This document shows positions 6,001 to 35,963 of a stretch of DNA of 35,963 nucleotides, in pieces. The notes beneath the pieces were generated by a model. That model made no database searches. It worked only from the letters and a program-made list of their open reading frames with translations, and had not been told where the DNA came from. The position numbers were made by a program, and so were the translations under genes. The DNA is taken from the NCBI GenBank assembly GCA_016932875.1, contig JAFGBZ010000008.1, positions 1 to 35,963 on the forward strand, written 5' to 3'. Each line of letters begins with the position of its first letter. Position 1 is the stretch's first letter. This DNA comes from Candidatus Iainarchaeum sp. GTDB taxonomy: Archaea > Iainarchaeota > Iainarchaeia > Iainarchaeales > JAFGBZ01.

Positions 6001-9000
6001 CTGGAAGGAAAAACAATCAGATTGTTTGAATGGAATGGAAGCACTTGGGAAAATGATTACAATATTAATGGTTTTGAAATTACTGAAGGAGAATTGTTTG
6101 TTGCAGATATTGATAATGATTCAAATAATGATATTCTTGTAATGAATATTGATTTAAAAAAAATAATTGTTTATTCATGGAAAGGAAGCACTTGGGAAAA
6201 TGATTTTAATATAAGCACAAACAAAAGATTACGAAGTTTTTTTGTTTCTGATTTAAATAATGATGGATTAAATGATTTGATTTTCCTGACTGCTGAAGAA
6301 GGTTCAATTGTTGATATCAATTTATCAGTTTATAATTGGAATGATTCTTTCACTTCATGGGAAAATTATTCAACTGAAAAATCATTTGATTTAAGTGCAA
6401 ACTCTGCAGTTGACTGCAATTCAGAGTATGGAACCAAAACTCTTTACACTAAATTTAAAGATAGAGCAGGAAATACAAGGATTGCAGAAAAAGAATTTAT
6501 TTATGCAAGCCAGCCAGTAATTACAGTTAATTATCCTAAAAGCACTTATATTTCAACAATAAATAATTCTGTTGTTGATATTAATTTCACTGTAACTGAT
6601 CCTTATTATGTGACTTCAACTTATCTTGCAAAAAAATATTATTCTGAAACAAAGGGAGCAAAAGAAAATTATTTAGGAGATACTGTTCTTACAAGAGAAG
6701 CAGAAAATACAAATCATTCAGTTGAATGGGATATAAGCAGTATTGCTGATGGAAATTATTATGTTGATTTGAATTTAAATAAAGCAATTGACAGCAGTTA
6801 TTTATATGATTTTAATTCAACTGATACTTCTGTTTACTTTGATGGAACTCGTCCAATAAGTTCAAGTGATGCAAATTCAGGCTGGCAGAAAACTGATTTC
6901 AATTTAGGAATTAGTGTTATTGAAGATTCAAATAATTATGCTTTAAAATACAGAATTGATTTAGATGCAACTGAAGCAATAAGCTGGAGTTCATGGATGG
7001 ATTATGAAGCAACAGGAATTGATTTCCAAAGCGATGGAAATTATGCAATTGATTTTAATGCAACTGATGCTGCAGGTAACAGCGAAAATGCTTCAGCAAT
7101 TCCTAACAGAGCATATATATTAGTTGATAAAACAACTCCAAATAGTTCAAGTGATGCAAATTCAGGCTGGCAGAATACTGATGCAAATGTGAGTTTAACT
7201 TGCAGTGATGTTAATGATTTAGCTGATTATAGTGACTGCAATTATGTTAAATACCAGCTAGATAATGATTCAAGCAATGATGTAAATTACAGTTCTGTAA
7301 TGGACTGGAATGGAGAAGGAATTCAAATAACTGAAGATGGAAATTGGGCGATAAAATACTGGGCAGTAGATAATGCAGGAAATGAAGAAACAGATCCAAT
7401 TGATTATGTTTTAATCGCTAGCGGAAGCCCTGTAGTCAATATTACTAATCCAACAGATGGCGCTTCTTATACTTCAGGAACTTCAAGTGTTACAGTAACC
7501 TATGAAGGAACTCCTGCAGGAAATCCAATAGATTATTATGAAGTGAGAATTAATTCAGGTTCATGGATTAATAATGGAACAAATTCAAGTTATGAATTCA
7601 CTGAATTAACTACTGGAACAAGTTATACTGTTGAAGTAAAAGTTGTTGATACTGCATTAAATGAAGGAACTGATTCAGTTTCATTTAGCATTGAAAATAC
7701 AGGAGGAACTTCAACTCAAACTTGTGCTGAATTAGGTGGAATTGAATGCATCCCAGGAAATCAAACATGTATTGGGCCTTTACTGTGCTGTGAATGGGTT
7801 TGCACTGGATATATTGGAGGCGCAAGCGATACTGCTAATTGTTATGCTTCAAGTGAATGTAATTCAATTCAGACTCTTGAAAAAGATTTAAGCATCGGAT
7901 TTTTTATCACAAACATAGATAATCCTGGTTCACAACATTTTGTTGAAGGAAACAGAATATTGTTCAGCATTATTGCAATAAATTCAGGTTCAGAAAATAT
8001 CACTACTCCGTTTACAGTAAAATTATGGGATGAATTTAATTCAGTTGAAATGACTTCAGAAACAATTAATTCGCTTAATTCAGGAGAGCAAAGAAATATT
8101 TCATTTGAATTTGTTTATAGTTCAAAGAATACCAAAATGAGTAAATGGAATGAAAAAGAAGTTTTATTTACTGCAATAGTTGATGCAGATGAAGAAATAA
8201 TTGAAGTAAATGAATTAAATAATGAATCAACTGCTACTGCAAGATTTGGATTGCTTTCAAATTTAACTTTTTCAGCAATGCCTGTACTGCTTGCAGGAAG
8301 CGATGTAGTAAGCACTCCATTCACAATTATTAATAAGGATGCTGAAATAACAACTCCTTTCAAAATAGGGGTTTCAGTTAATAATATTGGAGAAAATATG
8401 ACTTATTATACAGTTAATTCAATGGGTAAAAACAGCACATTACAGTTTAATTACAATTATACTTTTTCAACAGGGCAAGGAGAAATAACTCCTAAAACAG
8501 GAATTAAAACAATTATTCTTGAAGAAGAAAAAGAAAATACTGCATTATTTGCAGGAGATCCAGGAGAAACAATTTTCTTTTTTGGAATAGATTATGAAAA
8601 TATAATTGTTGAATCAAATGAAGGAGATAATAATTCCTTGCTTATTTATCAGGAAGCGCTTCCTGATTTAGAATTTGAGCCAGAAACAGATAACACAATA
8701 ACAGGAATTATAAATCAAGAAATAATTCTTTCAGGGAATATTAATAATATTGGTTCAAAAGAAAGCGGAAGCTTTAACACAAGAGTTTATTTAAGTTCAG
8801 AAAATATGCCTGAAGAAAAAATAATTGAGCTTTCATCAATCGGAATTAATGCAAGAAACAGTGTTGCAGTTGAATTTGAACTTTCTGAATTTGATTATGC
8901 AGGAAATTATTTTGCAAGAATAGTTATTGATGAAGATGAAGAAGTAACTGAACTGGATGAAACAAATAACCAATATATTTTCAATATGCAAATTATTGAT

Positions 9001-9492: not shown

Positions 9493-12318
9493 ATGAATAA
9501 AAAAATATTTGCATTTATTTTCATTCTTTTTTTGGCGCTTAATTGTTCTGCTGCTTCACAGTTAACGCTTCAGATAAATGAATCAAGCATTATTGAAGCA
9601 ACTCATGTTTATGATAATGATAATTCAATTGCTTTTGTTGATGTGTTTATTATAAATGCGCAAGGAACAACTGAACATTCATTCACAAATGTGACTGAAG
9701 GACAGGAACTTTTAGGAATAACTGAAGAAGAAACCGCTTACTATAATTTTATGGATGATGACGGAACAGAAATAGGACTTGGTTTTCTTATTCCGATAAG
9801 CGGAATTCCTTCAACTCCGCCAGTAATTCCAAGCATTACTGTAATACAAGATGCATGGATTACTCCAAGTGTTTATGATGAAGAAAATGGAAGATACCAA
9901 TTATTGATTGAAGCAGATGTAAATGAAAATCATTCATTAGATAATGTTGAATGGATTTACTCTATTGAAGGTTCACTGCAGAATCAGTCTCTTGAATTAA
10001 CAGGCGGACCAAATATTTATTCAGGAATTCTTGATAATTTAACTGGAGAAAAAATTATTACTTCTAAAATAAGAGCAACTGATTCGCAGGCAAAAATATA
10101 TGAATTCAATTTAGGAAAAAAAATATTTAATTTAATGGCAGTAAATCCTTTCTGTAATTATTCTCAAAATCCAGATGTTGATGGAGACGGATTATTCACA
10201 TGCATGGATGTAGAATGCTTATGGAATTATATTCTTAATTTTGAACTAAATCCTGAATGCAGAAACATTGAAGATTATGCTTCAGCAATAGATGACGGAG
10301 CAATTACTGCAGGCGATGTACAAAGAATGTTCCTGCAGGTTTGCCCTTATGGGCGATGCAGTGAAGGAGAATGTATTGTTCAAGGAAATTTAAAGGAAAC
10401 TAAAAAAGAAAATAAAATATTTTTACAAGGAGAAGGACAAAGTTCAATTCAGTTAAAATTCACTGACTCTGAACATAGCGATGTTTATGTAAGCCATCTT
10501 TATGATGATGATGCAACTATAGGAAAACTGGATGTTTATTATGATAATGGAAATGGAACAACACGCCTTGAATACTTTAATGTTTCACAGAATCAATATT
10601 TAGGAATAAGCATCCCTGAAGATGCGACAAGTTATTACAGTTTTTCTGATTATGATGGAACTATCATAGGGATTGGATTTTTCCTTGAAATAAGTGAACC
10701 TGATGCACCAAGTTTCTGTGAACTTTATCCTCAGGATCCTTCATGTGTTCCTGCTCCGGATTTAATTGAAAGTGCAACAATAAAAGCAAGATTAAATGAA
10801 ACAGAAAAGAAATATTATCTGGATTTTGAAGTAAAGGTTTTCGCAGGAAATGAAATTGACTGGGTTAAAATTGAATATAATTTTTTCAATAAAAATTATG
10901 TTGAAACACTGACTTTAACAGGAAATGAAACAACTTTTACAGGAAGTTTAGGGCCTTTTGAAAATGAATTAATTACTTTTTCAAGAGTAAGAGCAAAATC
11001 AGAAGAAAATACAGATACATTGTACCTTTCTCCAAGATGGGATTATCTTTTGGTTGGAATGATTTCATGCGAAGAAATTTGCTGGGATAATATTGATAAT
11101 GATGCAGACGGCTTCATTGATGAAGGCTGTGCAATTTTGCCCCAGCTTTATCCAAGAATAACTTCCTTGCCTGAATTTGTTTTAATTGGAAAATATTTTA
11201 CTTTAAGTTATGCAATAGGAAATTCAGGAGGAGAAGATGCAAATTCATTCAAATTCAAAACATTATTTGAAAAAGAAAAAATAAGAGAAGAAACAATTAA
11301 TTCTCTTAAAATAAATGAAAGCAAAGAATTTGAAGAAGAACTTTTTTCAGGAATTGAACCAGGAAGAAAAACAGTTAAAATTGAAGTTGATATTCTTAAC
11401 CAAATAAGTGAAAGCAATGAATCAGATAATATTCTTAACACAACACTTTGGGTAAGATTAAACCAGTTTGATGTGAATTACAATTACAATGAAACTTATT
11501 TTTTAGGAGATATAAGAGAAATAAGATTAAGAGATTTATTCAGAGAACTTGTTTCTGATGCAAATTGCGAAATAACTTATCCAAGCGGAAAAAAAATAAA
11601 TCTTGTTTCAGATGAAAAAGGTGTAATTCAGTTTACTTTGCTTGAAGGCGGAACACATAATCTTAAAGCAGAAAAAGAAGGATTTGAAACCTTTGAAGGA
11701 AACTTTGAAATAGAAGCAATAAATGTAGGATACAGAAAAGAACTTGAAATAGGAGATGTGCAGTTAATTAACCTTAAAACAAAAGACGGAAAACCAGTGG
11801 TTAATGCAACAGTAACAATTATTTCCCCAAGCGGAAAAACAGTGAAAATTGAAACAAATGAAAAAGGACAGGCATTTTTTGTAGTGCAGGAAAAAGGAAC
11901 ACATGCATTTATAATTAAAAGAAAAGATGTGAGTTTTTATAATTCAAGATTTGATTCATTAACAACAATAGAACAAATAAGTCTTGTTATGAATCAGTTC
12001 ATTGACATAACTGCAGGAAAAACACTGCTGGACTGGGTATTATTCATTATATTAATCGCATTAAGTGTTTATTCTGCAAGAACAGCATATAAACAGCTTA
12101 AATCACGCATGAAAAAAGGAAGCACAAGAGAAATAAAACTGCAGTTAACAGGAATTTCAATGATTGCAGGAATGCTTTTCATTGCACCAATTGCAGTAAA
12201 AGTTTTATTCGGAATAGGAATTGCATTTGCATTGGTTTTGATTGAAGTTGCTGCTGAAATGCTTGCAGAATATATGCTTAAACAAAAAGAAAAAACCAAA
12301 AAAATTAAAGTTGAATAA
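9493..12318 (+). CDS. Membrane-anchored surface protein (941 aa), putative partner or anchor of the giant protein
   Basis: Signal peptide (IFAFIFILFLALNCSAAS). Two duplicated ~280-aa modules (nt ~9550-10390 and ~10420-11135). Each module ends in a Cys-bounded Asp-rich motif: dockerin/EF-hand-like DVDGDGLFTCMD, or CWDNIDNDADGFIDEGC. CARDB-like domain ending in ISESNESDN. Two carboxypeptidase-regulatory/PEGA-like beta-sandwiches (ITYPSGKKINLVSDEKGVIQF and VTIISPSGKTVKIETNEKGQAFF). Two C-terminal hydrophobic helices (WVLFIILIALSVYSA and ISMIAGMLFIAPIAVKVLFGIGIAFALVLI). Confidence 0.85.
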   Translation: MNKKIFAFIFILFLALNCSAASQLTLQINESSIIEATHVYDNDNSIAFVDVFIINAQGTTEHSFTNVTEGQELLGITEEETAYYNFMDDDGTEIGLGFLIPISGIPSTPPVIPSITVIQDAWITPSVYDEENGRYQLLIEADVNENHSLDNVEWIYSIEGSLQNQSLELTGGPNIYSGILDNLTGEKIITSKIRATDSQAKIYEFNLGKKIFNLMAVNPFCNYSQNPDVDGDGLFTCMDVECLWNYILNFELNPECRNIEDYASAIDDGAITAGDVQRMFLQVCPYGRCSEGECIVQGNLKETKKENKIFLQGEGQSSIQLKFTDSEHSDVYVSHLYDDDATIGKLDVYYDNGNGTTRLEYFNVSQNQYLGISIPEDATSYYSFSDYDGTIIGIGFFLEISEPDAPSFCELYPQDPSCVPAPDLIESATIKARLNETEKKYYLDFEVKVFAGNEIDWVKIEYNFFNKNYVETLTLTGNETTFTGSLGPFENELITFSRVRAKSEENTDTLYLSPRWDYLLVGMISCEEICWDNIDNDADGFIDEGCAILPQLYPRITSLPEFVLIGKYFTLSYAIGNSGGEDANSFKFKTLFEKEKIREETINSLKINESKEFEEELFSGIEPGRKTVKIEVDILNQISESNESDNILNTTLWVRLNQFDVNYNYNETYFLGDIREIRLRDLFRELVSDANCEITYPSGKKINLVSDEKGVIQFTLLEGGTHNLKAEKEGFETFEGNFEIEAINVGYRKELEIGDVQLINLKTKDGKPVVNATVTIISPSGKTVKIETNEKGQAFFVVQEKGTHAFIIKRKDVSFYNSRFDSLTTIEQISLVMNQFIDITAGKTLLDWVLFIILIALSVYSARTAYKQLKSRMKKGSTREIKLQLTGISMIAGMLFIAPIAVKVLFGIGIAFALVLIEVAAEMLAEYMLKQKEKTKKIKVE

Positions 12319-12337: not shown

Positions 12338-13333
12338 ATGATTAGAGTTGCAATAAATGGTTTTGGCAGAATTGGAAGAATTGTTTTCAGACAGGCATTG
12401 GAAGAAAAAGAAATTGAATTGGTTGCAGTAACTTTTTCTCATGGAAATCAGGCTGCAGCACACTTTCTTGAATTTGATTCAGTGCATGGAAAATTAAATA
12501 AAAAAATTGAAGCAACAGAAAAAGGATTTTCAGTTAATGGAAAAGAAACACTGGTTATAAATGAACGTGATCCAACAAAATTACCTTGGAAAAAATTAGA
12601 TATTGATGTGGTTGTTGAAAGTACTGGAGCATTCAAAACATATGCTGACTGTGAAAAGCATTTAAATGCAGGGGCAAAAAAAGTTTTGTTAAGTGCTCCT
12701 GCAAAAGATGAAAAAATTCCTTCAATAGTATTAGGAGTAAATGAAAAAGCATTAACTGACGGTTCAAAAGTAATTGATAATGCTTCATGCACAACAAATT
12801 GTTTGGCTCCAATAGCAAAAGTATTGCATGAAAATTTTGGAATAAAAAACGGATTTATGACAACAATTCATGCTTATACTAATGATCAAAGAATTTTAGA
12901 CGGAAGTCATAAAGATTTACGCAGAGCAAGAAATGCTGCAACAAACATTATTCCTACAAGCACTGGTGCAGCAAAAGCTATTGGAAAAGTAATTCCTGAA
13001 TTAAAAGGAAAATTAAACGGAATAGCAGTAAGAGTTCCTGTTGCAGACGGTTCATTAGTTGATTTGGTTTTTGAATCAGAAAAACAAACAACAATTGAAG
13101 AAATAAATAAAGCAATGAAAAAAGCATCAGAAGGAAACTTAAAAGGAATTCTTGAATACACTGAAAAACCAATTGTTTCAAGCGATGTGATTGGAAACAA
13201 GCATTCAAGCATTTTTGATGCTCAAAGCACAATGGTTTCAGGAAAAATGATTAAAGTTCTTTCATGGTATGATAATGAAGCAGGATATTCTCAAAGAATG
13301 ATTGATGCAGTAAAAAAAATCAAATTCAGTTAA
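12338..13333 (+). CDS. gap: Glyceraldehyde-3-phosphate dehydrogenase, type I (bacterial/eukaryotic class)
   Basis: N-terminal Rossmann motif INGFGRIGR. Catalytic signature SCTTNCLAP. WYDNEAGYS near the C-terminus. 331 aa, typical for class I GAPDH. Confidence 0.93.
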   Translation: MIRVAINGFGRIGRIVFRQALEEKEIELVAVTFSHGNQAAAHFLEFDSVHGKLNKKIEATEKGFSVNGKETLVINERDPTKLPWKKLDIDVVVESTGAFKTYADCEKHLNAGAKKVLLSAPAKDEKIPSIVLGVNEKALTDGSKVIDNASCTTNCLAPIAKVLHENFGIKNGFMTTIHAYTNDQRILDGSHKDLRRARNAATNIIPTSTGAAKAIGKVIPELKGKLNGIAVRVPVADGSLVDLVFESEKQTTIEEINKAMKKASEGNLKGILEYTEKPIVSSDVIGNKHSSIFDAQSTMVSGKMIKVLSWYDNEAGYSQRMIDAVKKIKFS

Positions 13334-13344
13334 TTAACAAAAAA

Positions 13345-14106
13345 TTACTTTAACAGCAATTTCAAATATTCCTTGAATTCTTTTTCAAATTTTTCTGGAT
13401 GAATTAAATAATCAAATACTTCAGGTTTTTTTGTTCCAAGTAAATACATTGGTTCAGTTGTAATTCCTAATTCAGGAAATTCTTTTGGTTTGCATTCAGT
13501 TATTTCCACATGAGAAGAATAATTTTTATTTTTTTCAAATCCTTTTTCAGTGAAATAATACATTGCACCATGTTTTTCTTTAAAATTGCCATAATCTGAT
13601 TTAAATGTTGCTTCAATCCAGTTAGCCATTACTAATGTTTCATTTGAAGGATTAATTGTTACATGCCCAAATCCAGGAGGAATAATTATTTTTTCTCCTT
13701 CCAAACAGGTAACAGCAATGAATTTTTTTGAATCAATTGACTGCAATAAATACAATGCTTTTCCATGAATTACTTCATAAATTTCAGGATAATGCACGCC
13801 TGCAGGATTTTTTGGATGAAAATGCCCAAAAGTTTTATTGAATTCATTTCCTATTTTAGCTGAAGGAATTAAAGTTAAATCAAATCTTAAACCAGAAGAA
13901 TGGATTTTTTCTTTATGTTCTTTTGAGTGGGTGTCCCTGTACATGAAATAACAGTTTGCAGGAGAATTTGCTTCAGAATTCATTAAAACAGGCTTCATTT
14001 GCTGGATTGTCCTAATATCAGGAATCACTTTTTGCATGCTTTGTCCATCAAATTCAAGCAATTTATTTAATGAAATAGGAAGCCCTGAATTTGAAAGATT
14101 AATCAT
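13345..14106 (-). CDS. pgiA: Cupin-type glucose-6-phosphate isomerase (cPGI)
   Basis: Both published cPGI signatures are present: TxGHxH..ExY (TFGHFHPKNPAGVHYPEIYEV) and PPxxxHxxxN (PPGFGHVTIN). Size of 253 aa fits. Confidence 0.8.
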   Translation of the reverse strand: MINLSNSGLPISLNKLLEFDGQSMQKVIPDIRTIQQMKPVLMNSEANSPANCYFMYRDTHSKEHKEKIHSSGLRFDLTLIPSAKIGNEFNKTFGHFHPKNPAGVHYPEIYEVIHGKALYLLQSIDSKKFIAVTCLEGEKIIIPPGFGHVTINPSNETLVMANWIEATFKSDYGNFKEKHGAMYYFTEKGFEKNKNYSSHVEITECKPKEFPELGITTEPMYLLGTKKPEVFDYLIHPEKFEKEFKEYLKLLLK

Positions 14107-14141
14107 ATTAGTACAAAGAAGGATAATTAATTAAAATTAAT

Positions 14142-14162
14142 ACACCTTATTCTTTAAGGTGT
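14142..14162. promoter_or_regulatory. Perfect inverted repeat ACACCTTA-N5-TAAGGTGT in the divergent pgiA/pgk promoter region
   Basis: An 8-bp arm, 5-nt spacer and 8-bp arm read directly from the sequence, followed by a T-rich run (14163-14177). It lies 36 nt from the pgiA start and 38 nt from the pgk ATG. Confidence 0.45.
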
Positions 14163-14199
14163 TTTTTAATTTTTTTTAAGTGATTTTGTGCAGGAAAAA

Positions 14200-15390
14200 A
14201 TGAATTCGATTTATTCAGCTAAGTTAAAAGGAAAAACTGTTTTTTTAAGATGTGATTTAAACAGCACAATTATTGCAGGCAGAGTTGCTTTAAGCTCCCG
14301 CATTAGAGAGCATGCAAAAACAATTTATTTTTTAAGCGAAGAAGACGCTAAAACAGTTGTTTTAAGCCATCAGGGAAGAGAAGGCAGAGATGATTTTGTT
14401 GACTTGCAAAGACACAGTAAATTAATTAAAAAATTAATTGATAAGCCAGTTAAATTTGTGAAATGGAATGAAGATTATGTTAAAAAAATAAAGGAAATGA
14501 AAAACGGAGAAATAATTCTTTTAGATAATACTCGTTTTCTTGCAGAAGAAGGAAAAGAATTAACTCCTGAAGAACATGCAAAAACAGGATTTATTAAAAA
14601 ACTTACTTCAATTCCTAATTCGATTTTTGTTCAGGATGCTTTAAGCGTCTGCCATAGAAGCCATGCAAGCGTTGTAGGATTAAGCTGCTGCATGCATTCT
14701 TATGTCGGACCAGTGCTTCAAAGAGATTTAGATGCATTAAGCAAATTAAATGAAATAAAGGATTCGAAAACACTTGTTTTAGGCGGAGCAAAAGTAAAAG
14801 ATTCACTTAAAATAATTGAAAAAACTTTAATTAAAAATTATGCAAATAAAATAATTGTCGGCGGAGTATTAGGAGAAGTTTTTCTTAAAGCAAAAGGAAT
14901 AAAATTCGGAGCAAAAGACAAATTCTTGGAAGAAAAAGGATTCAATGAATTTAATTCAAAAGCAAAATCAATTTTAGAAAAATTCAGCGACAAAATTGTT
15001 TTACCAATTGATTTAGGTGCTGAAAACAATAACTGCAAAAGAACTGAAATAAAAATAAAGAATTTACCAAGTGAATTAATGATTTATGATATTGGATGGG
15101 AAACAATTGAAAAATATAAAAAAGTGATTAAAGAATCAAAATTAACAATATTTAACGGCCCAATGGGAATGTTTGAAAGAAACGGGTTTGCTTTAGGAAC
15201 AAAAAAAATCCTTGAATGCATTGCATTTTCAAGAACTTTTTCAATTATTGGCGGCGGAGACACAGAAAAAGCATTAATGAATTTCGGATTAATGCCTCAA
15301 GACTTTAATCATTTAAGCTTAGCAGGAAAAGCCCTTTTATCTTATTTAGCAGGAGAAAAACTGCCAGGATTAGAAGTACTAAAAAAATAA
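14200..15390 (+). CDS. pgk: Phosphoglycerate kinase (archaeal type)
   Basis: LKGKTVFLRCDLNS, VLSHQGREGRDDF, ILLDNTRFLAEE and FSIIGGGDT match PGK N- and C-domain motifs. I prefer ATG 14200 over the in-frame GTG 14188 used by the ORF track. Confidence 0.9.
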   Translation: MNSIYSAKLKGKTVFLRCDLNSTIIAGRVALSSRIREHAKTIYFLSEEDAKTVVLSHQGREGRDDFVDLQRHSKLIKKLIDKPVKFVKWNEDYVKKIKEMKNGEIILLDNTRFLAEEGKELTPEEHAKTGFIKKLTSIPNSIFVQDALSVCHRSHASVVGLSCCMHSYVGPVLQRDLDALSKLNEIKDSKTLVLGGAKVKDSLKIIEKTLIKNYANKIIVGGVLGEVFLKAKGIKFGAKDKFLEEKGFNEFNSKAKSILEKFSDKIVLPIDLGAENNNCKRTEIKIKNLPSELMIYDIGWETIEKYKKVIKESKLTIFNGPMGMFERNGFALGTKKILECIAFSRTFSIIGGGDTEKALMNFGLMPQDFNHLSLAGKALLSYLAGEKLPGLEVLKK

Positions 15391-20858: not shown

Positions 20859-21455
20859 TTAATCAAATTCTCCTTTACGAATCTGAAGCATTAAATCATC
20901 AGATATTTCCCTTGTTTTTATTCTTTCTTTTTTTGATTCATTCATTGAAATCTTTTTTTCAGCTTTAACAATTATTTCTCTTGCCTGTTCAATGTAAACT
21001 GAATCAATTCTTGATTCAAGTCTTACAAGTTTTTTCTGATTTGAATTAAGAATTTCTTTGTAGGTTTTTTCATCTATTTTGCGGGTGAAAAACTTTTTTT
21101 TTGCTTCATTGAATGAATGCATTAAAGCATCTTTTTCATTTAAAAGTTCATAAAATTTATCTTTTCTTTTTCCAGTAAATTTCATTGATTCCTGAGGTTT
21201 TAGTTTCTCCAGTTTCATTTTTGCATTAAGTAAAGCAATTTCTGCATTAATTTCAATTAATTTACGCTGATTTTCAGAATTAAGCAACTGAAATGCTTCT
21301 TGCGAAATCTCACGCTTGAAAAACTTTTTTTCGCCTAAACGCAGTTCATCCTCAATTTGTTTTTTTTGTGATTCAAATTTAGCTATCTTATTAGAGTAAA
21401 AAAGCCCATGAATTTTAAGCTTTAATTTAGAAAAAACACTGCACATAAAAACCAA
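20859..21455 (-). CDS. Coiled-coil hypothetical protein with an internal duplication
   Basis: Two related segments: KKFFKREISQEAFQLLNSENQRKLIEINAEI and KKFFTRKIDEKTYKEILNSNQKKLVRLESRI. They look SHOCT-like by eye, with low certainty. Confidence 0.55.
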   Translation of the reverse strand: MVFMCSVFSKLKLKIHGLFYSNKIAKFESQKKQIEDELRLGEKKFFKREISQEAFQLLNSENQRKLIEINAEIALLNAKMKLEKLKPQESMKFTGKRKDKFYELLNEKDALMHSFNEAKKKFFTRKIDEKTYKEILNSNQKKLVRLESRIDSVYIEQAREIIVKAEKKISMNESKKERIKTREISDDLMLQIRKGEFD

Positions 21456-21497: not shown

Positions 21498-21845
21498 TTA
21501 ATCAAGCGCAAGAGTTGTTTTTATTGCTATATCAACTCGATGCATTGATTCATTTGAAAGTTTTCCTATTTTTTTAATAACTCTGTCTTTAACAGAAATT
21601 GCCCTTAATTGTGTGCACAATATTGTGCTTTTTTCTTTCAGCTCAGAATCCAAAGAAGAAACAATAACAATTGTAGGATATTCTTTTTCAGGAATTTTTG
21701 AAGTTAAAGGAACAACAGTAGTTATTGAACTTAATTTATTCAAAATATTGTTTTGAACAACTAAACAAGGCCGTATTTTTCCTTGCTCTGAACCAAAAAC
21801 AGGTTCCAAATTAACTAAAACAATGTCTCCGCGTTCAACAATCAT
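21498..21845 (-). CDS. mazF: MazF/PemK-family toxin (mRNA interferase)
   Basis: GDIVLVNLEPVFGSEQGKIRPCLVV, VVPLTSK and ILCTQLRAISVKDR match the PemK/MazF fold motifs. It overlaps the upstream antitoxin gene by 11 nt. Confidence 0.85.
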   Translation of the reverse strand: MIVERGDIVLVNLEPVFGSEQGKIRPCLVVQNNILNKLSSITTVVPLTSKIPEKEYPTIVIVSSLDSELKEKSTILCTQLRAISVKDRVIKKIGKLSNESMHRVDIAIKTTLALD

Positions 21846-22104
21846 CTAAAACCACGTCAGCTTCTTTGCTTGCATGCTTCCACTCTTCATCAACTTCTTT
21901 TTCCAGCCAAGAATATTTTTCAAAATATTCCTTGATTAATTCCTCTTTTTCTTTTTGCGGTTTTTCAACAACTATTTTTTTTTCTTCTATTTTAACAATT
22001 AGTTTATCTTTTGGATTTAAACCCGCTATTTCACGAATTGATTTAGGAATTGTTATTTGTCCTCTTTCACCCATTATAGTAATACTTTCATACAAAAAAA
22101 TCAC
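21835..22104 (-). CDS. AbrB/SpoVT/MazE-type antitoxin
   Basis: The looped-hinge-helix signature RGQITIPKSIREIAGLNPKDKLIV is present, with an acidic C-terminal tail. The start is uncertain: GTG 22104 as in the ORF track, or ATG 22074. Confidence 0.8.
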   Translation of the reverse strand: MIFLYESITIMGERGQITIPKSIREIAGLNPKDKLIVKIEEKKIVVEKPQKEKEELIKEYFEKYSWLEKEVDEEWKHASKEADVVLDDC

Positions 22105-22218: not shown

Positions 22219-25200
22219 ATGAATAAATTTTCGTTGTTTGTCTTAATCTTGTTTTTGTTGTTTTTCTGCGCTTGTTCTGAACAAAGCGAGGCTGAAAGGC
22301 TTGCATGCATTAATTATTCTTCTTTTTATTCTAATTCTGTTCCTGACTGCAGCAGCTCTGAAGACTGCCTTAAAAAAGTTAAAACTGCATTTAGTCTTGA
22401 AACTGAGTTTTTGAGCACAAATATTTCATGGGAAACAGACAAATATCTTTTTCACACCGCAAAATCATGGTTTTATTTTTCTGAAGCAAAAAAAAATCTT
22501 AAAGAAATTTATTCTTCATGTGTTAAAGGAAAAGAATTTTCTTCAACTGCTAAAAATGCAAATGAGTTAAGCAATAACATAAATCAGCTGTTTAAAGAAA
22601 TTGATTCGAGTACAAAAGAATCAATAATTATTCTTTCATTAATTGACGCTGAACTTAAAGAACAGGATATTAACCTTGCAAGAGAAACTGCTTTGTTCAG
22701 AACACATTCAAAAGTAATTGAAAATATTAACCAAGCAGGACATCCTGAACTGAAATTTGGTTCTGATTTATATTATGCTTCTTATCTTTCACGAGTTAAA
22801 GAATTCAAGAGTTTTCTTGAAATAAAGGAAGTGGATTTTATTGATTCGTTTAAAATTTCTGTTGCTGAACTTATTGAAAAATTTTTTCCAGAATTAAAGA
22901 AAAAAATCCCGTTCAAGGAATTTTTTGTTCCGCTTATTGCTGAAATTACAATAGAAAAAGTAAATTTATCTATTGAAGGAATGATTCTGCATGATTCGGT
23001 TGCTGTAATGAAAGGAATTAGCGCCCAGAAAGCAGTTGAAGCAATTGACGGGTTTGTTTCAGCGCAAAATAGCTCTGTTGCAATGAAATTTATTTCAATT
23101 ATAAAAGAAATTAATGAAACCAAAAAAGAATTTGAAAAAAAAATACAGGAAATGATTAATTTATCAGAAAAAAAGATAAATGCCTCAGAGGAAACCCTGA
23201 AAAATATTTCTTTCAGTTTCGATGAATTCACTTCTGAAGTGCTTCAAGAACTCGCATCAAATTCAGGGGAAGTGATTGTAAAAACAAGTGAAACTGATTT
23301 TTCACTTTCTTCATTCAAAGAAAATGAAATGAAAAAAATAAATGAAATTAAGCTTGAACTGAATGAATTTAAAATTGAAAAATCAACTGAAAAAATATCT
23401 TTAGGACAGGAATATGCAACAGCAAAAAAAATTTATGATGAAACAGAAAAAATCAGCAAAGAAATAGATTATTTCAGCAATGAAGAAAAAAATTCAATTT
23501 ATTTTTTATGCGAAAGCAGAGTATCTGAAATAAAGGAAATAATTTATGCATTCAATCAGTTTTCTTCAAATGAAATTGAAGCAGTTGCTTCAGCAGTAAA
23601 ATTCAATATTGCATTATTTGAAAAATCATCAGAAGAAAAAAAACTTGAATTATGCCCTAAAATAATCAATAAATTTATTGAATTCAGAAGCGCTGAAAAC
23701 AATGAAGAACTATTTATTGAAAACAGTGTTCTTGAAAGCAAAGAATGTGTTTTATTGCTCCGCGAAATGATTTCAAGTAAAATTTTAAGTGATTTCAGGT
23801 TTGCTTTTGAAAAACTGGTTTTAAAGGAAAACAATTATGAATCGCTTCAGGAATGCATTGGATTAAAGGAAAACATGATTAAAGCAGTGTTTGGCTCAAA
23901 AGAATTCATTGAATTTGAAGAAAACCTGACTGAATTTGAAGAAATTGTTTTATCATTGAAATTAATTCCTTCTGCTAAAAACAGTTATGGATTAGAAAAA
24001 AAGCTTGAATTTTACTCTGAATTCAAAAAAGAAAGCAAAATAACTGAATTTCTTAAAAAATCAAATTTAACTGAAGAAATCATTAAAGAAACAGAAAATG
24101 CTGAAAAAATTCTTAAAGAAGAACTTGTTTTATTTATTGAACGAAATGCATTAATTGAAACAGGGCTTAATGAAGCAGTAAAAGCAGGAGAAAAAATAAA
24201 TTCAGTTACAAAAATAAAGTTATTTAATCCTTCAAATGCTTTTGAAGAAAAAATTTCAGTTGAACTCAAATTCAGCGCAGAAAACGCTGAACTGATTTAT
24301 TCTTCTGCAGATTGCACTGCTGAATTTGAAAAAGAAAAAATTATTATTTATTTTATTTCGCTTCCTGAACGAGAAACAATTCTTGAAATCAATTCATTAA
24401 TTATGCCTGCAACTTTAACTGAAACAGAAAAACTAATTTCAATAACCCAAAATAAAGCACTTTTTATGAAAACAATTACAGTAAATGCATCGCAGAAAAT
24501 AAGCCTGCTTCAGATTGAAACAATAATACCAAATAACAGTTCAGAGATAAGCATTCTGAGAAACAGCAAATTAATTGAATTTGAAAAAACAGAGGAAAAA
24601 CTTTCTTTTTATCTTTCACAGTCTGAAAATAAGGATAAAATTGAAGTGTTTTATTCTTTTTTTAATCCGATTAAAACTGTTTTTGAGCTTTCTGAATTAA
24701 AAGATGAAACTGAAACAGAAAAAGAATACACTTACAAGTTTAAAATTGAAAACCTGCTTTCAGAGAAAATTGATTTAATTGAATTAATGCCTTTGCTTCC
24801 TTCAAATAATTCAATTGTATCACAGTTTATTGAAAATGAAAAAAACATTTCAGTTAAAACTGAAAACATGAAAACAATTATTTCAGTTAAAAATCTTCAA
24901 GCAAAAGAAAAAAGAGAATTTACTTTAATTGTAAAAACTTCACAGGAAAAAGAATTCTGGGAAAATAAATTCAATGAATTAAAAGAAGAACTGCTTATTT
25001 TAGATAAACAAGAAACTGCTGAACTTCTTGAAAAAATAAATGCCCTTGAAGCAGTATTCACTACTTCAAAGAAAAATATAACTGAATTCACTAAACTAGA
25101 AAAAGAAGCAAATGAAATAATAAAAAAAAGCAATGAAGAAAAAGAAAAAGAAGCAGAATTCATGCTTTTGCGCTTGAATGCAGAAGAAAGACTTTCAGAA

Positions 25201-26265
25201 GAAATTGCTTTACTTGAAGAAAACGAAAGCATTTCATTGCAGGAAAAATATTCTGAAATGCGCGCACTGCTCTTGCAGGCAGATGAAGCAAAATCATTAG
25301 GAAATATTGATTTGGCTCTTTCATTAATTAAAAGCTTTTCAGGAAAATTAATTGAACTGCCTTCTTCTCTTGAAAAAGATTCATTCATTGAAAGAAAAAA
25401 CGAAATAACTGGAAAAGCAAATTCAGCAGTTGAAAAAGCAGCTTCTTTAGGACTTGAAAGAAGGTTGAGCGCTGAAAAAAAAGAATTAAGTGCGTTAGAA
25501 GAAGAATTTTCTTCAGCGATTACAGAAGGAAAGCTTGGAAGCGCAGAGCAAGTGTTGCAGAAAATGAATGAAAAAGAAAAAGAACTGGAAGAGAATTTAT
25601 TGCAGGAAATACAAAGTGAAATAAATAAAGTAAAGCCAAAAATAATGGAAACTGCAAAAAAAATAAATTTAATTCCTGAAAAAATTTCTGAATTAAAAGA
25701 ATTAATGAATGAATTTGATAAAGTAAAGGATTTGATTGATTATGTTGCTCCTACAACTAAAGAAAGAATTGAATCAATTGAAAAAGAATTTAAAGAAATT
25801 CCAGTAAAAGAATTAAATGGATTGATTCATGAAATTGTTTCATTAGAAGAAGCACTAGATTATGAAAATAAATTAATTAAATTAAATGAATTTAATGAAA
25901 AATATTCTGATTCAATGAAGAAAATTGATTCACTTTATGTTGAACTGAATTCTTCAGTTGAAAAAATAATGCAGGATTCAATGGTTTATTTTAATCTTGC
26001 TTCAAAGCAGGCATCAGGAGAAAAGGCTTTAGAAGCATTGGAAAAAGCAAAGCAGGCAATAGAAGAAAAAAAATTCATTAAATCAATTGCTTTCAGTAAA
26101 ACAGCAATGCTTTCAGCTTCAACAGGAAATGAAATTGATTTAAGTGCTTTTCCAATAGCAGTAATTCCTTTCATTCTTGTAGTAGTAGGAGTGATTGCAT
26201 TTAAATGGAAGCAAAAACAAGAAGACAAAAAACCTAAAAAGAAAAAAAAAGTAAAAGGAATTTGA
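22219..26265 (+). CDS. Giant C-terminally anchored coiled-coil surface protein (1348 aa)
   Basis: Signal peptide with a Cys-containing end (LLFFCACSEQ). Long E/K/L-rich helical regions. A central beta-rich segment (~aa 640-910, for example KISVELKFSAENAELIYS and REFTLIVKT). C-terminal TM (FPIAVIPFILVVVGVIAFKW) followed by a Lys-rich tail. Confidence 0.85.
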   Translation: MNKFSLFVLILFLLFFCACSEQSEAERLACINYSSFYSNSVPDCSSSEDCLKKVKTAFSLETEFLSTNISWETDKYLFHTAKSWFYFSEAKKNLKEIYSSCVKGKEFSSTAKNANELSNNINQLFKEIDSSTKESIIILSLIDAELKEQDINLARETALFRTHSKVIENINQAGHPELKFGSDLYYASYLSRVKEFKSFLEIKEVDFIDSFKISVAELIEKFFPELKKKIPFKEFFVPLIAEITIEKVNLSIEGMILHDSVAVMKGISAQKAVEAIDGFVSAQNSSVAMKFISIIKEINETKKEFEKKIQEMINLSEKKINASEETLKNISFSFDEFTSEVLQELASNSGEVIVKTSETDFSLSSFKENEMKKINEIKLELNEFKIEKSTEKISLGQEYATAKKIYDETEKISKEIDYFSNEEKNSIYFLCESRVSEIKEIIYAFNQFSSNEIEAVASAVKFNIALFEKSSEEKKLELCPKIINKFIEFRSAENNEELFIENSVLESKECVLLLREMISSKILSDFRFAFEKLVLKENNYESLQECIGLKENMIKAVFGSKEFIEFEENLTEFEEIVLSLKLIPSAKNSYGLEKKLEFYSEFKKESKITEFLKKSNLTEEIIKETENAEKILKEELVLFIERNALIETGLNEAVKAGEKINSVTKIKLFNPSNAFEEKISVELKFSAENAELIYSSADCTAEFEKEKIIIYFISLPERETILEINSLIMPATLTETEKLISITQNKALFMKTITVNASQKISLLQIETIIPNNSSEISILRNSKLIEFEKTEEKLSFYLSQSENKDKIEVFYSFFNPIKTVFELSELKDETETEKEYTYKFKIENLLSEKIDLIELMPLLPSNNSIVSQFIENEKNISVKTENMKTIISVKNLQAKEKREFTLIVKTSQEKEFWENKFNELKEELLILDKQETAELLEKINALEAVFTTSKKNITEFTKLEKEANEIIKKSNEEKEKEAEFMLLRLNAEERLSEEIALLEENESISLQEKYSEMRALLLQADEAKSLGNIDLALSLIKSFSGKLIELPSSLEKDSFIERKNEITGKANSAVEKAASLGLERRLSAEKKELSALEEEFSSAITEGKLGSAEQVLQKMNEKEKELEENLLQEIQSEINKVKPKIMETAKKINLIPEKISELKELMNEFDKVKDLIDYVAPTTKERIESIEKEFKEIPVKELNGLIHEIVSLEEALDYENKLIKLNEFNEKYSDSMKKIDSLYVELNSSVEKIMQDSMVYFNLASKQASGEKALEALEKAKQAIEEKKFIKSIAFSKTAMLSASTGNEIDLSAFPIAVIPFILVVVGVIAFKWKQKQEDKKPKKKKKVKGI

Positions 26266-33541: not shown

Positions 33542-33877
33542 TTATTTTTTTAAGTTTTCAATTGCTTCAGCTATATCGCCGTTTGATTCTTTTAATGCGT
33601 TTTCTGCTTCTTTTTTTGTTTTTCCTGTTGTTTCTGCAACCATTGCAATATCTTCTTCAGGTATTTCTGTTTCATTTGTTTCTTCTTTTGCTTCGCCCAT
33701 TACTGTGTATGTTTTTTGTCCGCTCATTTCAACTGCTGTAACCTGAGGATTTTCAATTACTAATTTTTTTGAATTCATTTCAAATATTACTTTTTTTACT
33801 TCAAGTTCATCTGATTTAATTCCCATTTGTTTCATTATTCTTTGCATGTTTTTTGGATTCATTCCGCCTGGAAACAT
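33542..33877 (-). CDS. nac: Nascent polypeptide-associated complex protein (NAC domain + UBA)
   Basis: MFPGGMNPKNMQRIMKQMGI, the NAC beta-barrel segment (KLVIENPQVTAVEMSGQKTYTVMGE) and a C-terminal UBA-like segment (EEDIAMVAETTGKTKKEAENALKESNGDIAEAI). Confidence 0.9.
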   Translation of the reverse strand: MFPGGMNPKNMQRIMKQMGIKSDELEVKKVIFEMNSKKLVIENPQVTAVEMSGQKTYTVMGEAKEETNETEIPEEDIAMVAETTGKTKKEAENALKESNGDIAEAIENLKK

Positions 33878-33919: not shown

Positions 33920-34555
33920 TTATTGTTCTGGAGTTAATTTAACTACTTTATCGCAGAACTGTTCAATTGTTTGCACTGCTTCTTTGTATTCTTCTGATTC
34001 AACAAATAAAAATAATCCGATTGATTTTTTTTGATTTATTTTTGATGCAAGAGTGTGAAAGAATTTTTCAACACTGTTTTTATCATTATAAACCAGTAAA
34101 GTTGAAATTGAATCCAATACAAGTACTAGTGTGTTTGTTTTATTTGAAATAGCAGAATCAAGTTCAATAAGTGCTTCAGATAATGCATTTGGAGAATTAA
34201 GAAATGATGTCTGCGAAGTGTTTTCTTTTTCAAGACTTAAAGCACTAATCATATCAATGAAATGTATTTTTTCTGCATTTAACTTATTTTTTTGCATAAA
34301 ATGAAGCAAAAATTCAACTGGTTTATTTAAAGTAACATAAATGGAGTCTTTTGTTGAAACCAGTTCAAGCATTGCATCTCTTGCAGCAGGATAAATTTCC
34401 GGAGCAATAAGCATTAAAACTGCCAATCCTTCATTTGAGCCATCAGATAATTCTTTTTGAATCATTGCCTTTATTTTGCTTTCAATTGAAAAAATGTCTT
34501 CAATGTTTTTTTCATTTTTCTTTTCAGGAACTTCAGCCATTGTTTCTTTTTTCAT
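33920..34555 (-). CDS. P-loop-less KaiC/RecA-fold paralog (DUF835-like), 211 aa
   Basis: No GxxGxGK(T/S) motif. It retains a Walker-B-like strand LVLVLDSISTLLVYN and the pattern YVTLNKP...IHFIDMIS...SPNALSEA. This resembles the ITRxxP...W(L/I)(S/T)...sP..L layout of inactivated KaiC domains. It is a paralog of the 35386-35910 product. Confidence 0.55.
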   Translation of the reverse strand: MKKETMAEVPEKKNEKNIEDIFSIESKIKAMIQKELSDGSNEGLAVLMLIAPEIYPAARDAMLELVSTKDSIYVTLNKPVEFLLHFMQKNKLNAEKIHFIDMISALSLEKENTSQTSFLNSPNALSEALIELDSAISNKTNTLVLVLDSISTLLVYNDKNSVEKFFHTLASKINQKKSIGLFLFVESEEYKEAVQTIEQFCDKVVKLTPEQ

Positions 34556-34563
34556 TTAATCAC

Positions 34564-35310
34564 TTATTTTTGTTCTTCAAGGAATAAATCTGATTTAACC
34601 AAAACTGATACGCCTGTTTTGCTTATTATTATTGGTTTTAATTTTTCAGAGATTTTTGTGTTACGCATTTTTAGTATTCCAATGCTTCTGATGAAATGGC
34701 TTCCTATTTTTGTGTGATAAAGTAAAATTACTCCGTCAGCAACATATTCTTCAAGCCCGTAAAGAGAAGACTGTTTATCTAAAGAAATTTCATTGGTTAT
34801 TATTGTTGTGCATTCAATTTCTTTAAGCATTTTTCCTAGTGCAACAATTCTTTTTCTTGCATCAAGTTCTCTTTCAAAAAATAAACGGAAAATTACTCCT
34901 GGATCAATTACAACTCTTTTTGCATTTATTGAACGGATTGTGTCTTCAATTAAATTTTTTAAGCGTTCAAAATCATATAATTCGACCACAACTACTTTCA
35001 TTTTTTTTTCATTTATTAATTTTTGTAAATCCCAGCCAAATTCTTTTGCTCCTGCAATTATTGTTGATTCACTTTCTTCAAGAGAGATATATACTCCTGG
35101 TTCATTGTATTTTGTTGCACCTTCATAAAGAAACTGCCAGCAGAAAACGGTTTTTCCGCTTCCAGGGTCTCCGCTTAAAACAACTAAATTTCCTTGAGGA
35201 ATTCCTCCGTCAAGAAGTTCATCTAAACCTGCAATTCCGCTTTGAAGTCTGTCCCCTCCACGGAATGGTTTGATTTCAGCTACTTTTTTTTCAAGCATAG
35301 TAAAACACAA
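34564..35310 (-). CDS. Single-domain KaiC-like / RecA-superfamily ATPase
   Basis: GIAGLDELLDGGIPQGNLVVLSGDPGSGKT (Walker A at complement of 35149-35172). Walker B RVVIDPG. The overall KaiC/Rad55 (COG0467-type) pattern is present. An alternative start is ATG 35298. Confidence 0.85.
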   Translation of the reverse strand: MCFTMLEKKVAEIKPFRGGDRLQSGIAGLDELLDGGIPQGNLVVLSGDPGSGKTVFCWQFLYEGATKYNEPGVYISLEESESTIIAGAKEFGWDLQKLINEKKMKVVVVELYDFERLKNLIEDTIRSINAKRVVIDPGVIFRLFFERELDARKRIVALGKMLKEIECTTIITNEISLDKQSSLYGLEEYVADGVILLYHTKIGSHFIRSIGILKMRNTKISEKLKPIIISKTGVSVLVKSDLFLEEQK

Positions 35311-35385
35311 GTTGGTAAATAATAAAAAACAAATCTATAAATAGTCTTTAAAGATTAATAATACTGTTGCCTTTAAAGTGAGATT

Positions 35386-35910
35386 ATGGATAAATTAAAG
35401 CATTTGATTCTTATTGTGCCTAACCAAAGATACGGGGAAAGCATTATTGAATTTGTGAAGAAAATTGAAAGAAAATACAGTAAAATTTGTTATATTACTT
35501 TAAATGATCCTTATGCACAGCTGGAAAAATCTTTTGAGGAAAATCATATTGCAATAGAAAAATTTTTTTTCATTGATGCAATTTCAAGAGTGCTTAAAGT
35601 ACAGAAACAGAATTATAATAACTGTATAATGGTTAGTGCACCAAATTCATTGATTGAGTTAAGTCTTGCAGTAAGTGAAGTCATTGAAAAACATAAACCA
35701 GATGTTTTTATTCTTGATTCTCTTTCAACTCTGCTTATTTATGAAAACAATAATGCAATTACAAGGTTTATTCATTCAATTCTTGTAAAAATTGAAACAA
35801 GCGATGCTGAATTTCTTATGACTGTTCTTTACAGCGATGAAAAAAACAATGCAGTTGAAGAGCTTGGAATGTTTGTTGATGAATTAATGCAAATAAGCAA
35901 ATTCCAGTAA
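35386..35910 (+). CDS. P-loop-less KaiC/RecA-fold paralog (DUF835-like), 174 aa
   Basis: No Walker A motif. CYITLNDP...FFFIDAIS...APNSLIELS...DVFILDSLSTLLIYEN runs parallel to the 33920-34555 product. It is transcribed divergently from the KaiC-like ATPase. Confidence 0.55.
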   Translation: MDKLKHLILIVPNQRYGESIIEFVKKIERKYSKICYITLNDPYAQLEKSFEENHIAIEKFFFIDAISRVLKVQKQNYNNCIMVSAPNSLIELSLAVSEVIEKHKPDVFILDSLSTLLIYENNNAITRFIHSILVKIETSDAEFLMTVLYSDEKNNAVEELGMFVDELMQISKFQ

Positions 35911-35963
35911 TTAGTAAATAAATTTTAATAATTATTTTACTTCAGTAAATAATTCTTCATGTA

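Follow-up and report, generated by a model that had tools for sequence, protein, structure and literature searches.

Results

KaiC-family genes at a contig end

The window analysed here is the complete contig JAFGBZ010000008.1 of Candidatus Iainarchaeum sp. (the longest contig, 35,963 nt, with a GC content of about 30%), and one end of it carries a cluster of genes of the KaiC family and of inactivated KaiC-like proteins, referred to as A, B, C and KaiC2. B, a single-domain KaiC-family ATPase (34564-35310, minus strand), is 248 aa long when read from a TTG at 35310 and 244 aa long from an in-frame ATG at 35298. It is followed on the same strand, after a gap of 8 nt, by A (33920-34555, minus strand), an intact open reading frame (ORF) of 211 aa. 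C (35386-35910, plus strand), an intact ORF of 174 aa, is divergent from B, and the two starts are separated by an AT-rich intergenic spacer of 75 nt (35311-35385), in which both promoters are presumably sited. The spacer contains two copies of CTTTAAAG (35346-35353 and 35371-35378), a palindrome that was not enriched window-wide (4 seen against 2.19 expected; at least 4 in 15 of 100 shuffles). These three ORFs, the 8-nt gap and the divergent orientation agree with a first-pass annotation of the same DNA, which had described A, B and C as a minimal three-gene module with two inactive paralogs per ATPase. A fourth gene, KaiC2, is represented by its 3' end (35929-35963, minus strand), which comprises the last 10 codons and a stop codon (35929-35931); this gene lies in convergent orientation to C and is interrupted where the contig ends.

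B is predicted to be a catalytically intact KaiC-family ATPase

B scored 204.6 bits against the Pfam KaiC family (PF06745; E 1.8e-60, cut-off 26.6), which places it in this family, and it carries a complete catalytic set consisting of Walker A GDPGSGKT, the catalytic LEES, Walker B VVIDPG and the Lys/Arg finger ILKMRNT. It is thus predicted to be catalytically intact, in line with its first description as a complete single-domain ATPase. Among solved structures, the best match of B was the CI domain of KaiC (134 bits, compared with 63 for CII), with GDPGSGKT, LEES, VVID and ILKMR in register, and PH0284, PH0186 and SSO2452 were also clear sequence relatives (E 1e-25 to 1e-37). B consists of one KaiC domain (244-248 aa), whereas bona fide circadian KaiC has two tandem domains (~500 aa), and its scores lay below the circadian KaiC equivalog cut-offs (NF006799 / TIGR02655; 169.7 vs 408 and 128.5 vs 546 bits, respectively). 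No KaiA or KaiB domain was detected in the Pfam-scanned ORFs of the window (at least 110 aa, apart from three opposite-strand ORFs nested in larger genes and a 117-aa ORF largely overlapping the AMMECR1 gene on the opposite strand), and the scanned genes do not constitute a KaiABC-type oscillator. On the ArlH/FlaH model NF052589, for which the cut-off is 215 bits, B reached 53.1 bits, A 17.9 bits and C 16.8 bits, and none of the three is classified as ArlH.

A and C are predicted inactivated KaiC-fold paralogs

A and C are paralogs of each other (34% identity over 143 residues, E 2e-20), as had been proposed from the sequence at first sight. Both matched the Pfam family DUF7504 (PF24336; cut-off 27), A with 45.3 bits and C marginally with 27.4 bits, and the precomputed PF24336 match is present in most of their relatives. 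On the KaiC model (PF06745; cut-off 26.6), A scored 33.8 bits and C 22.9 bits. The matches to DUF835 (PF05763), a related family, were weaker than those to DUF7504 and KaiC and stayed below the cut-off of 33.1 bits (19.5 bits, E 9e-4, for A; 17.2 bits, E 4.5e-3, for C), and no match to MEDS (PF14417) was obtained for A or C at E<=1. The earlier assignment of both proteins to a DUF835 type should therefore be replaced by DUF7504.

The structures of A and C were predicted with AlphaFold2 from a 31-sequence alignment, with high confidence for both models (pLDDT 94.2 and pTM 0.90 for C; pLDDT 89.7 for A). In Foldseek searches, both models had KaiC, PH0284, PH0186, SSO2452 and FlaH as neighbours (E 3e-7 to 3e-5), with query-normalised TM-scores of 0.66-0.77 for the best PDB matches. 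The C model matched KaiC at E 3.4e-7 and PH0284 at a TM-score of 0.77, and the A model had PH0284 as its top match (E 8.8e-7), with FlaH (4yds) at E 7e-6. The matches to KaiC and PH0284 had a probability of 1.00. By sequence, none of the solved structures belonged to the A/C family, and the best of them was KaiC (E 6.5e-7). The A1 profile aligned to B in hhalign with a probability of 6%, the template being one sequence only; the homology of A and C with KaiC is taken from the Pfam, PDB-profile and Foldseek results. Profile and structure evidence agree that the proteins flanking B have the KaiC fold, as the first-pass annotation had supposed.

The catalytic elements found in B are missing from A and C. 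No G-x4-GK[ST] motif is present in either protein, the sequence of the equivalent loop being APEIYPAA (A) or VPNQRYGE (C). The position of the catalytic Glu is occupied by an invariant Asn (Asn77 in A, Asn40 in C) in the motif Y[IV]TLN, which aligns to FVTFEE of KaiC. Both proteins stop just past the F[VC]D+V strand, and the C-terminal ~50 residues, including the trans-acting Lys/Arg finger, are missing. The Walker-B strand and the following helix are kept as DS[IL]STLL[VI]Y (LVLDSISTLLVY in A and FILDSLSTLLIY in C), so that the loss of the P-loop with retention of a Walker-B-like strand, reported in the first-pass annotation, was borne out. Taken together, motifs and models indicate that A and C have the KaiC fold without P-loop, catalytic Glu and finger, and they correspond to the concept of inactivated KaiC (iKaiC) proteins.

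Nine columns, N, D, P, L, DS, L, Y and F, are invariant over 31 sequences from several phyla. In the model of C, the residues N40, D64, P86, D111, S112 and Y119 each sit at the C-terminal end of a core beta-strand or immediately past it. Since these nine columns are invariant across the alignment and the profile of the family recovers hundreds of clusters (see below), the A/C family appears to be under selection. The possibility that A and C are decayed pseudogenes was ruled out by their intact ORFs, the motifs invariant across phyla, the high-confidence folds and the hundreds of family clusters.

The fourth gene points to a second KaiC ATPase

The last 35 nt of the window (35929-35963, minus strand) translate to HEELFTEVK followed by a stop. 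The closest relative of the locus, L001 (GCA_054474055.1), in which B is 85% (228 aligned residues), A 65% and C 74% identical, contains a gene convergent with the C ortholog that encodes a 374-aa KaiC ATPase ending in HEELFKELK and a stop (PF06745 161.8 bits, Walker A GGCGTGKT), and the order A-B-C-KaiC2 is kept in L001, L008 and L015. The matching C-terminus and the same convergent position in L001 indicate that the window end encodes a second KaiC ATPase, and because the window is the whole contig, KaiC2 is truncated where the contig stops. The locus is thus predicted to hold two ATPases and two inactive paralogs, and the three-gene module with two inactive paralogs per ATPase was an artefact of the contig end. 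Beyond KaiC2, two surface-protein genes follow in L001 (286-3499), and the equivalent stretch lies past the contig end of the window.

A-type and C-type iKaiCs are paired with different KaiC subtypes

Relatives were collected with a degenerate-motif scan over one genome per GTDB species, by which 221 were found; 80 loci were kept, and their ORFs were called and then sorted by hidden Markov models (HMMs) and BLAST clustering. Almost all of the 80 loci belong to DPANN archaea (Iainarchaeum/Diapherotrites, Altiarchaeota, Aenigmatarchaeota, Woesearchaeota, Nanoarchaeota and Micrarchaeota), and the closest named relatives of A and C are from Diapherotrites/Iainarchaeum and other DPANN archaea. When the A/C profile was searched against 1.84 billion representative proteins, the matches comprised 791 clusters under a limit of E<=1e-30 and 2375 under E<=1e-10 (about 800 to 2,400, counted at 50% identity), most of which are stand-alone proteins of 170-190 aa.

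B-type KaiC was defined by GDPGSGK[ST] together with a score of over 250 bits to B. An iKaiC lies directly 3' of the B-type KaiC on the same strand in 15 of 17 non-redundant loci, and the gap of -4 to +8 nt between the two genes suggests that they are translationally coupled. All of the iKaiCs found downstream of B-type KaiC (16/16) scored better against A than against C, and every iKaiC convergent with a KaiC2-type ATPase, which mostly carries GG[CA]GTGKT, was C-like. C and KaiC2 occur without B and A nearby in L014 and L006, and B and A occur without KaiC2 in L071, L076, L077 and L083, showing that the two pairs are separable modules. These results, drawn from genome comparison, argue that the unit consists of two cognate pairs, B-type KaiC with A-type iKaiC and KaiC2-type ATPase with C-type iKaiC, in which A of the window would be the cognate partner of B and C that of the truncated KaiC2. 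The conservation of iKaiCs beside KaiC ATPases that had been expected of related genomes was found, but as two pairs and not as a triad.

In Iainarchaeum-type genomes, the C orthologs reach 530-800 aa and have extra domains (L014 7053-9428; also L011, L016, L018, L020, L022 and L023). Besides the iKaiC domain they have an N-terminal helical domain, long low-complexity linkers rich in K and E, and a coiled-coil tail that ends in a SHOCT-like motif. The tail gave matches to SHOCT (20.4 bits vs 27) and GvpG only, both below threshold. The ~50-aa N-terminal helical domain is shared with KaiC2 of these genomes (hhalign 98.6%, E 1.3e-15), and this common domain provides an independent tie of C to KaiC2. 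The view that the inactive paralogs are minimal, stand-alone proteins with no sensor domain thus holds for the lineage of the window and does not extend to these longer orthologs.

Other arrangements were also observed. L017, L026, L034, L039 and L050 (Altiarchaeota and others) have a co-directional operon of a KaiC (~240 aa, Walker A G[SP]PG[IM]GKS), a C-like iKaiC (~187 aa) and a very divergent second iKaiC (~180 aa), which, in contrast to the window, is a true one-ATPase/two-iKaiC arrangement. An expanded cluster in one uncultured archaeon (L074, 6754-13797) has five iKaiC genes, with KaiCs of 380 aa and of 642 aa, the latter a double-domain protein (PF06745 342 bits, two domains), and three tandem iKaiC genes after them.

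Neighbourhoods of iKaiC genes in relatives

Features near iKaiC were counted over 79 species-level loci. An active KaiC was present within 1.5 kb in 48/79 loci, genes for histidine kinases or receivers lay within 3 kb in 31/79 loci, and 71/79 loci had either a KaiC (within 5 kb) or a kinase/receiver gene. CheC-like proteins were found in 15 of the loci, two or more iKaiCs in 30, and membrane-anchored surface proteins of the families cl4 and cl7 in 26. The proximity of histidine kinases, receiver domains and CheC-like proteins in other DPANN lineages fits the idea that KaiC-like ATPases act as signalling hubs, on which the first-pass annotation had drawn.

A recurring order was observed in Iainarchaeum-type genomes, including the closest relatives of the window, and consists of two to three cl4 genes, C, a gene for a small coiled-coil protein, KaiC2, B, A and a gene for a ~430-aa coiled-coil protein. 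In some of these genomes, the cluster is adjoined by two T2SSF genes, a PilB/ArlI-like ATPase and pilins with class-III signals. The cl4 and cl7 proteins, which are unrelated-looking families from different phyla, have a common cytoplasmic tail, IKxLQxxYFxxGxxxxxxYxxxxxxYxxxL, past the C-terminal transmembrane helix. An HMM of this conserved tail picked up only cl4 (40 ORFs) and cl7 (15 ORFs), and the KaiC modules may dock here. The surface proteins flanking the cluster in relatives could be its sensors. A similar motif was seen by eye in the tails of the long C-type iKaiCs, where the HMM was not significant. It was likewise seen by eye in a window ORF at 20859-21455, where the HMM gave a domain E of 0.57, and this link was dropped.

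Other genes of the window

Downstream of A, after 42 nt on the same strand, lies a gene for an NAC protein with a UBA domain (33542-33877, minus strand), which may be co-transcribed with A. The NAC-A adjacency is repeated in L001, and more distant relatives have the ~430-aa coiled-coil gene at this place. Besides NAC, the remaining genes of the window are archaeal housekeeping genes, for an FKBP26-type peptidyl-prolyl isomerase, a proteasome beta subunit, FttA/aCPSF1, glyceraldehyde-3-phosphate dehydrogenase, phosphoglycerate kinase and a cupin-type glucose-6-phosphate isomerase, together with giant surface proteins. The three glycolytic genes form a compact cluster (12338-15390), with the dehydrogenase at 12338-13333, the isomerase at 13345-14106 (minus strand) and the kinase at 14188-15390. 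The very large predicted surface proteins are encoded at 31-12318 (plus strand) and 22219-26265 (plus strand) and comprise a 3153-aa protein with FG-GAP repeats, LamG, CARDB and fn3 domains, a 941-aa protein with CARDB and a C-terminal transmembrane helix, and a 1348-aa coiled-coil-rich protein with a C-terminal transmembrane helix and without a Pfam match. Giant surface proteins of this kind are typical of the cell-surface repertoires of DPANN archaea.

The window also contains a toxin-antitoxin pair of the MazEF type, with a MazF/PemK toxin (21498-21845, minus strand; PF02452, 108.8 bits) overlapped and preceded by an 89-aa putative antitoxin ORF (21835-22104, minus strand) that has an AbrB/MazE-like N-terminus, GQITIPKSIREIAGL. 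The ORF at 20859-21455 (minus strand) encodes a helical protein of 198 aa without a Pfam match, in which two copies of the motif KKFFxRxIxxxx[YF]xxL...KL are present. Scans of the window for tRNA genes and Rfam families were empty, and PADLOC gave no defence-system match in the window, only a weak P-loop match. The HMMs for cl4, the cl6 coiled-coil protein, cl8, the type IV pilus (T4P) ATPase, T2SSF and pilin had no match in the window.

Discussion

On balance, we consider it probable that the locus encodes two cognate pairs, each formed by an ATP-driven KaiC switch and a dedicated non-catalytic partner subunit. The analysis shows which genes are present, which motifs are lost, the fold, a synteny specific to each pair and how the family is distributed; from these observations we infer physical A-B and C-KaiC2 complexes, a switching step and an output. 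The first pair would be B and A, encoded by a tightly coupled two-gene operon, and the second pair C and the convergent KaiC2. B and KaiC2 would assemble into rings of the RecA/KaiC type which, like those of KaiC and ArlH, bind and hydrolyse ATP or autophosphorylate and thereby undergo a conformational switch. A and C, which keep the fold and, where the nucleotide site used to be, a conserved crest, would serve as regulators or adaptors that bind in stoichiometric amounts, each to its own ATPase, and either report its nucleotide state or restrain its activity. Through these partners the ATPase may be linked to the tails of surface proteins, to type IV pili in some genomes and to two-component kinases and receivers in other DPANN phyla. 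This reading is based on the operon coupling, the one-to-one pairing of subtypes, the intact ATPase, and a partner that has the fold but lacks both the cis and the trans catalytic elements.

The mixed hexamer proposed in the first-pass annotation, if it means that inactive subunits complete active sites, seems unlikely, because A and C lack the C-terminal segment with the trans-acting Lys/Arg finger. An iKaiC placed in the ring could not complete the active site of its neighbour, and the effect of any co-assembly would therefore be to damp or gate the activity, not to share it. It is equally possible that A and C are stacked or lie peripherally.

Several points weigh against the two-pair model. 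The A-B and C-KaiC2 complexes are predicted from genomic evidence, namely coupled spacing and subtype pairing, and KaiC2 is represented in the window by 10 codons only. The conservation of the crest could equally mean binding of a small ligand, instead of or besides binding of the ATPase. The roles of the KaiC expansion in archaea are themselves largely hypothetical. Furthermore, homologs of cl4, cl6, pilin, T2SSF and the T4P ATPase as well as histidine kinase and receiver genes were not found in the window, so that input and output for this organism are read from its relatives; if present in this organism, these neighbour families would lie past the contig end, as in L001.

An alternative, which we regard as unlikely but as the strongest of those considered, is that the pairs belong to a DPANN type IV pilus or a machine resembling the archaellum, as accessory components of its motor or its regulation, with B acting like ArlH on an assembly ATPase and the iKaiC and its coiled-coil neighbour serving as a scaffold like ArlX/ArlCDE. 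In favour of this role, B and A directly follow two T2SSF genes and a pilin with a class-III signal in relatives, with a PilB/ArlI-like ATPase also in L071 and L076 (also L003), and in 13 loci they are followed by the ~430-aa coiled-coil protein (cl6), which has a hydrophobic N-terminus. In L014 and L006, C and KaiC2 lie beside a PilB/ArlI-like ATPase, two T2SSF genes and a pilin. An association of KaiC ATPases with T4P loci has also been published (PMC4858521), and the structural matches of A include FlaH. However, pilus genes occur within 8 kb in just 11 of the 79 loci and are absent from the 36-kb window, the 53 bits of B on the ArlH model fall far short of the cut-off of 215 and compare with 162-170 bits on KaiC models, and in other phyla the family adjoins two-component genes instead.

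It is also conceivable, and in our estimate improbable, that A and C are chiefly sensors of small ligands, whose remodelled pocket would bind a metabolite or a nucleotide derivative and pass the signal to the adjacent ATPase. This possibility is consistent with the invariant residues, which the model of C places at or immediately past the C-terminal end of the core strands, where proteins of the RecA fold would be expected to bind nucleotide. It also agrees with the literature on archaeal two-component proteins, in which the related MEDS and DUF835 domains are treated as sensors or inputs (PMC5847659). On the other side, MEDS gave no match and DUF835 remained below threshold, no iKaiC has a known ligand, and the strictly one-to-one association with a particular type of ATPase speaks in the first place for recognition between proteins. 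A sensor role would be compatible with the two-pair model, and the pilus and sensor explanations both overlap it. A third explanation, in which the genes are recombination mediators like RadB or the Rad51 paralogs and the inactive RecA-fold proteins assist the active one on DNA, finds some encouragement in weak matches of B to RecA, RadA, RadB and Rad51 models (E 1e-7 to 2e-2) and in a RAD51-paralog complex (9q25) far down the Foldseek list of A, but it is very improbable given that B scores 170-205 bits on KaiC models vs 27-32 on RadA/RadB and that the conserved neighbours are surface-protein, two-component or pilus genes and not DNA-repair genes.

The two-pair model can be extended to the neighbours. 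Both pairs and the tail-bearing surface proteins might constitute a DPANN-wide transmembrane system for signalling or attachment control that does not use two-component chemistry, a speculative extension that we think has a rather low probability. The surface proteins would sense contact, for example with a host cell, and act through their tails on the ATP-driven KaiC switch, and the pseudo-ATPase partner would set the output of the switch toward pili or other effectors.

The two pairs can be compared with several known systems. The hypothesis of KaiC signalling hubs, including iKaiC proteins, is that of Makarova, Galperin and Koonin 2017, as cited in PMC5847659. As presented there, the iKaiC proteins of such hubs have, like A and C, the KaiC/RecA fold with ATPase motifs lost, are encoded with KaiC ATPases and two-component proteins, and have a predicted function; iKaiC domains (DUF835, MEDS) also occur fused to receiver domains (PMC5847659). 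By comparison with this account, A and C are stand-alone proteins of ~175-210 aa, belong to DUF7504 and not to DUF835 or MEDS, and are each paired with one KaiC subtype. ArlH (FlaH) is, like B, a single-domain KaiC-like protein (~230 aa), and its binding to the partners ArlI and ArlX/ArlCDE depends on nucleotide and phosphorylation; its autophosphorylation changes the oligomeric state and partner binding (PMC8978795). The occurrence of B and A in T4P loci of relatives beside a coiled-coil protein recalls ArlH with ArlX. Unlike ArlH, B scores far below the model cut-off and is not accompanied here by an arl operon, and ArlH is not known to have a dedicated P-loop-less paralog. Cyanobacterial KaiC shares with B the catalytic residues of its CI domain and the idea that the state of a ring ATPase is read by a small partner, for which CI and KaiB provide the precedent. 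In contrast to the CI-CII protein, B is single-domain with no KaiA or KaiB nearby, and its partner would be a degenerate KaiC domain encoded by a separate gene. PH0284 (2dr3), PH0186 (2zts) and SSO2452 (2w0m), the best structural templates for A and C (TM-scores 0.66-0.77), keep the P-loop, unlike A and C.

Modules of KaiC and inactivated KaiC have thus been put forward in earlier publications, and Pfam already lists the A/C family as a DUF, so that no discovery of principle is involved. Our literature search for DUF7504 returned no paper. In the literature searched, in which Makarova 2017 is represented through the papers that cite it, there appears to be no description of a strict pairing of two iKaiCs with two KaiC subtypes, of a DPANN-wide spread of the A/C family, or of recurrent surface-protein neighbours with a shared tail.

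To our knowledge, no candidate signalling family in archaea is more expanded than the KaiC-like ATPases, and a partner or output is known for almost none of them. Compared with the three-gene module of the first-pass annotation, the unit obtained here is more sharply defined and open to direct test, consisting of small soluble one-to-one pairs of an ATPase and a pseudo-ATPase that are subtype-specific. With a total of 455-459 aa, B and A would offer a simple system for the effect of an inactivated KaiC domain on a KaiC ring. The pairs are conserved in several phyla of DPANN archaea, in which genomes are very small and regulators of other kinds are few, and the recurring surface-protein and pilus neighbours hint at a link to the cell surface or to host contact in DPANN archaea.

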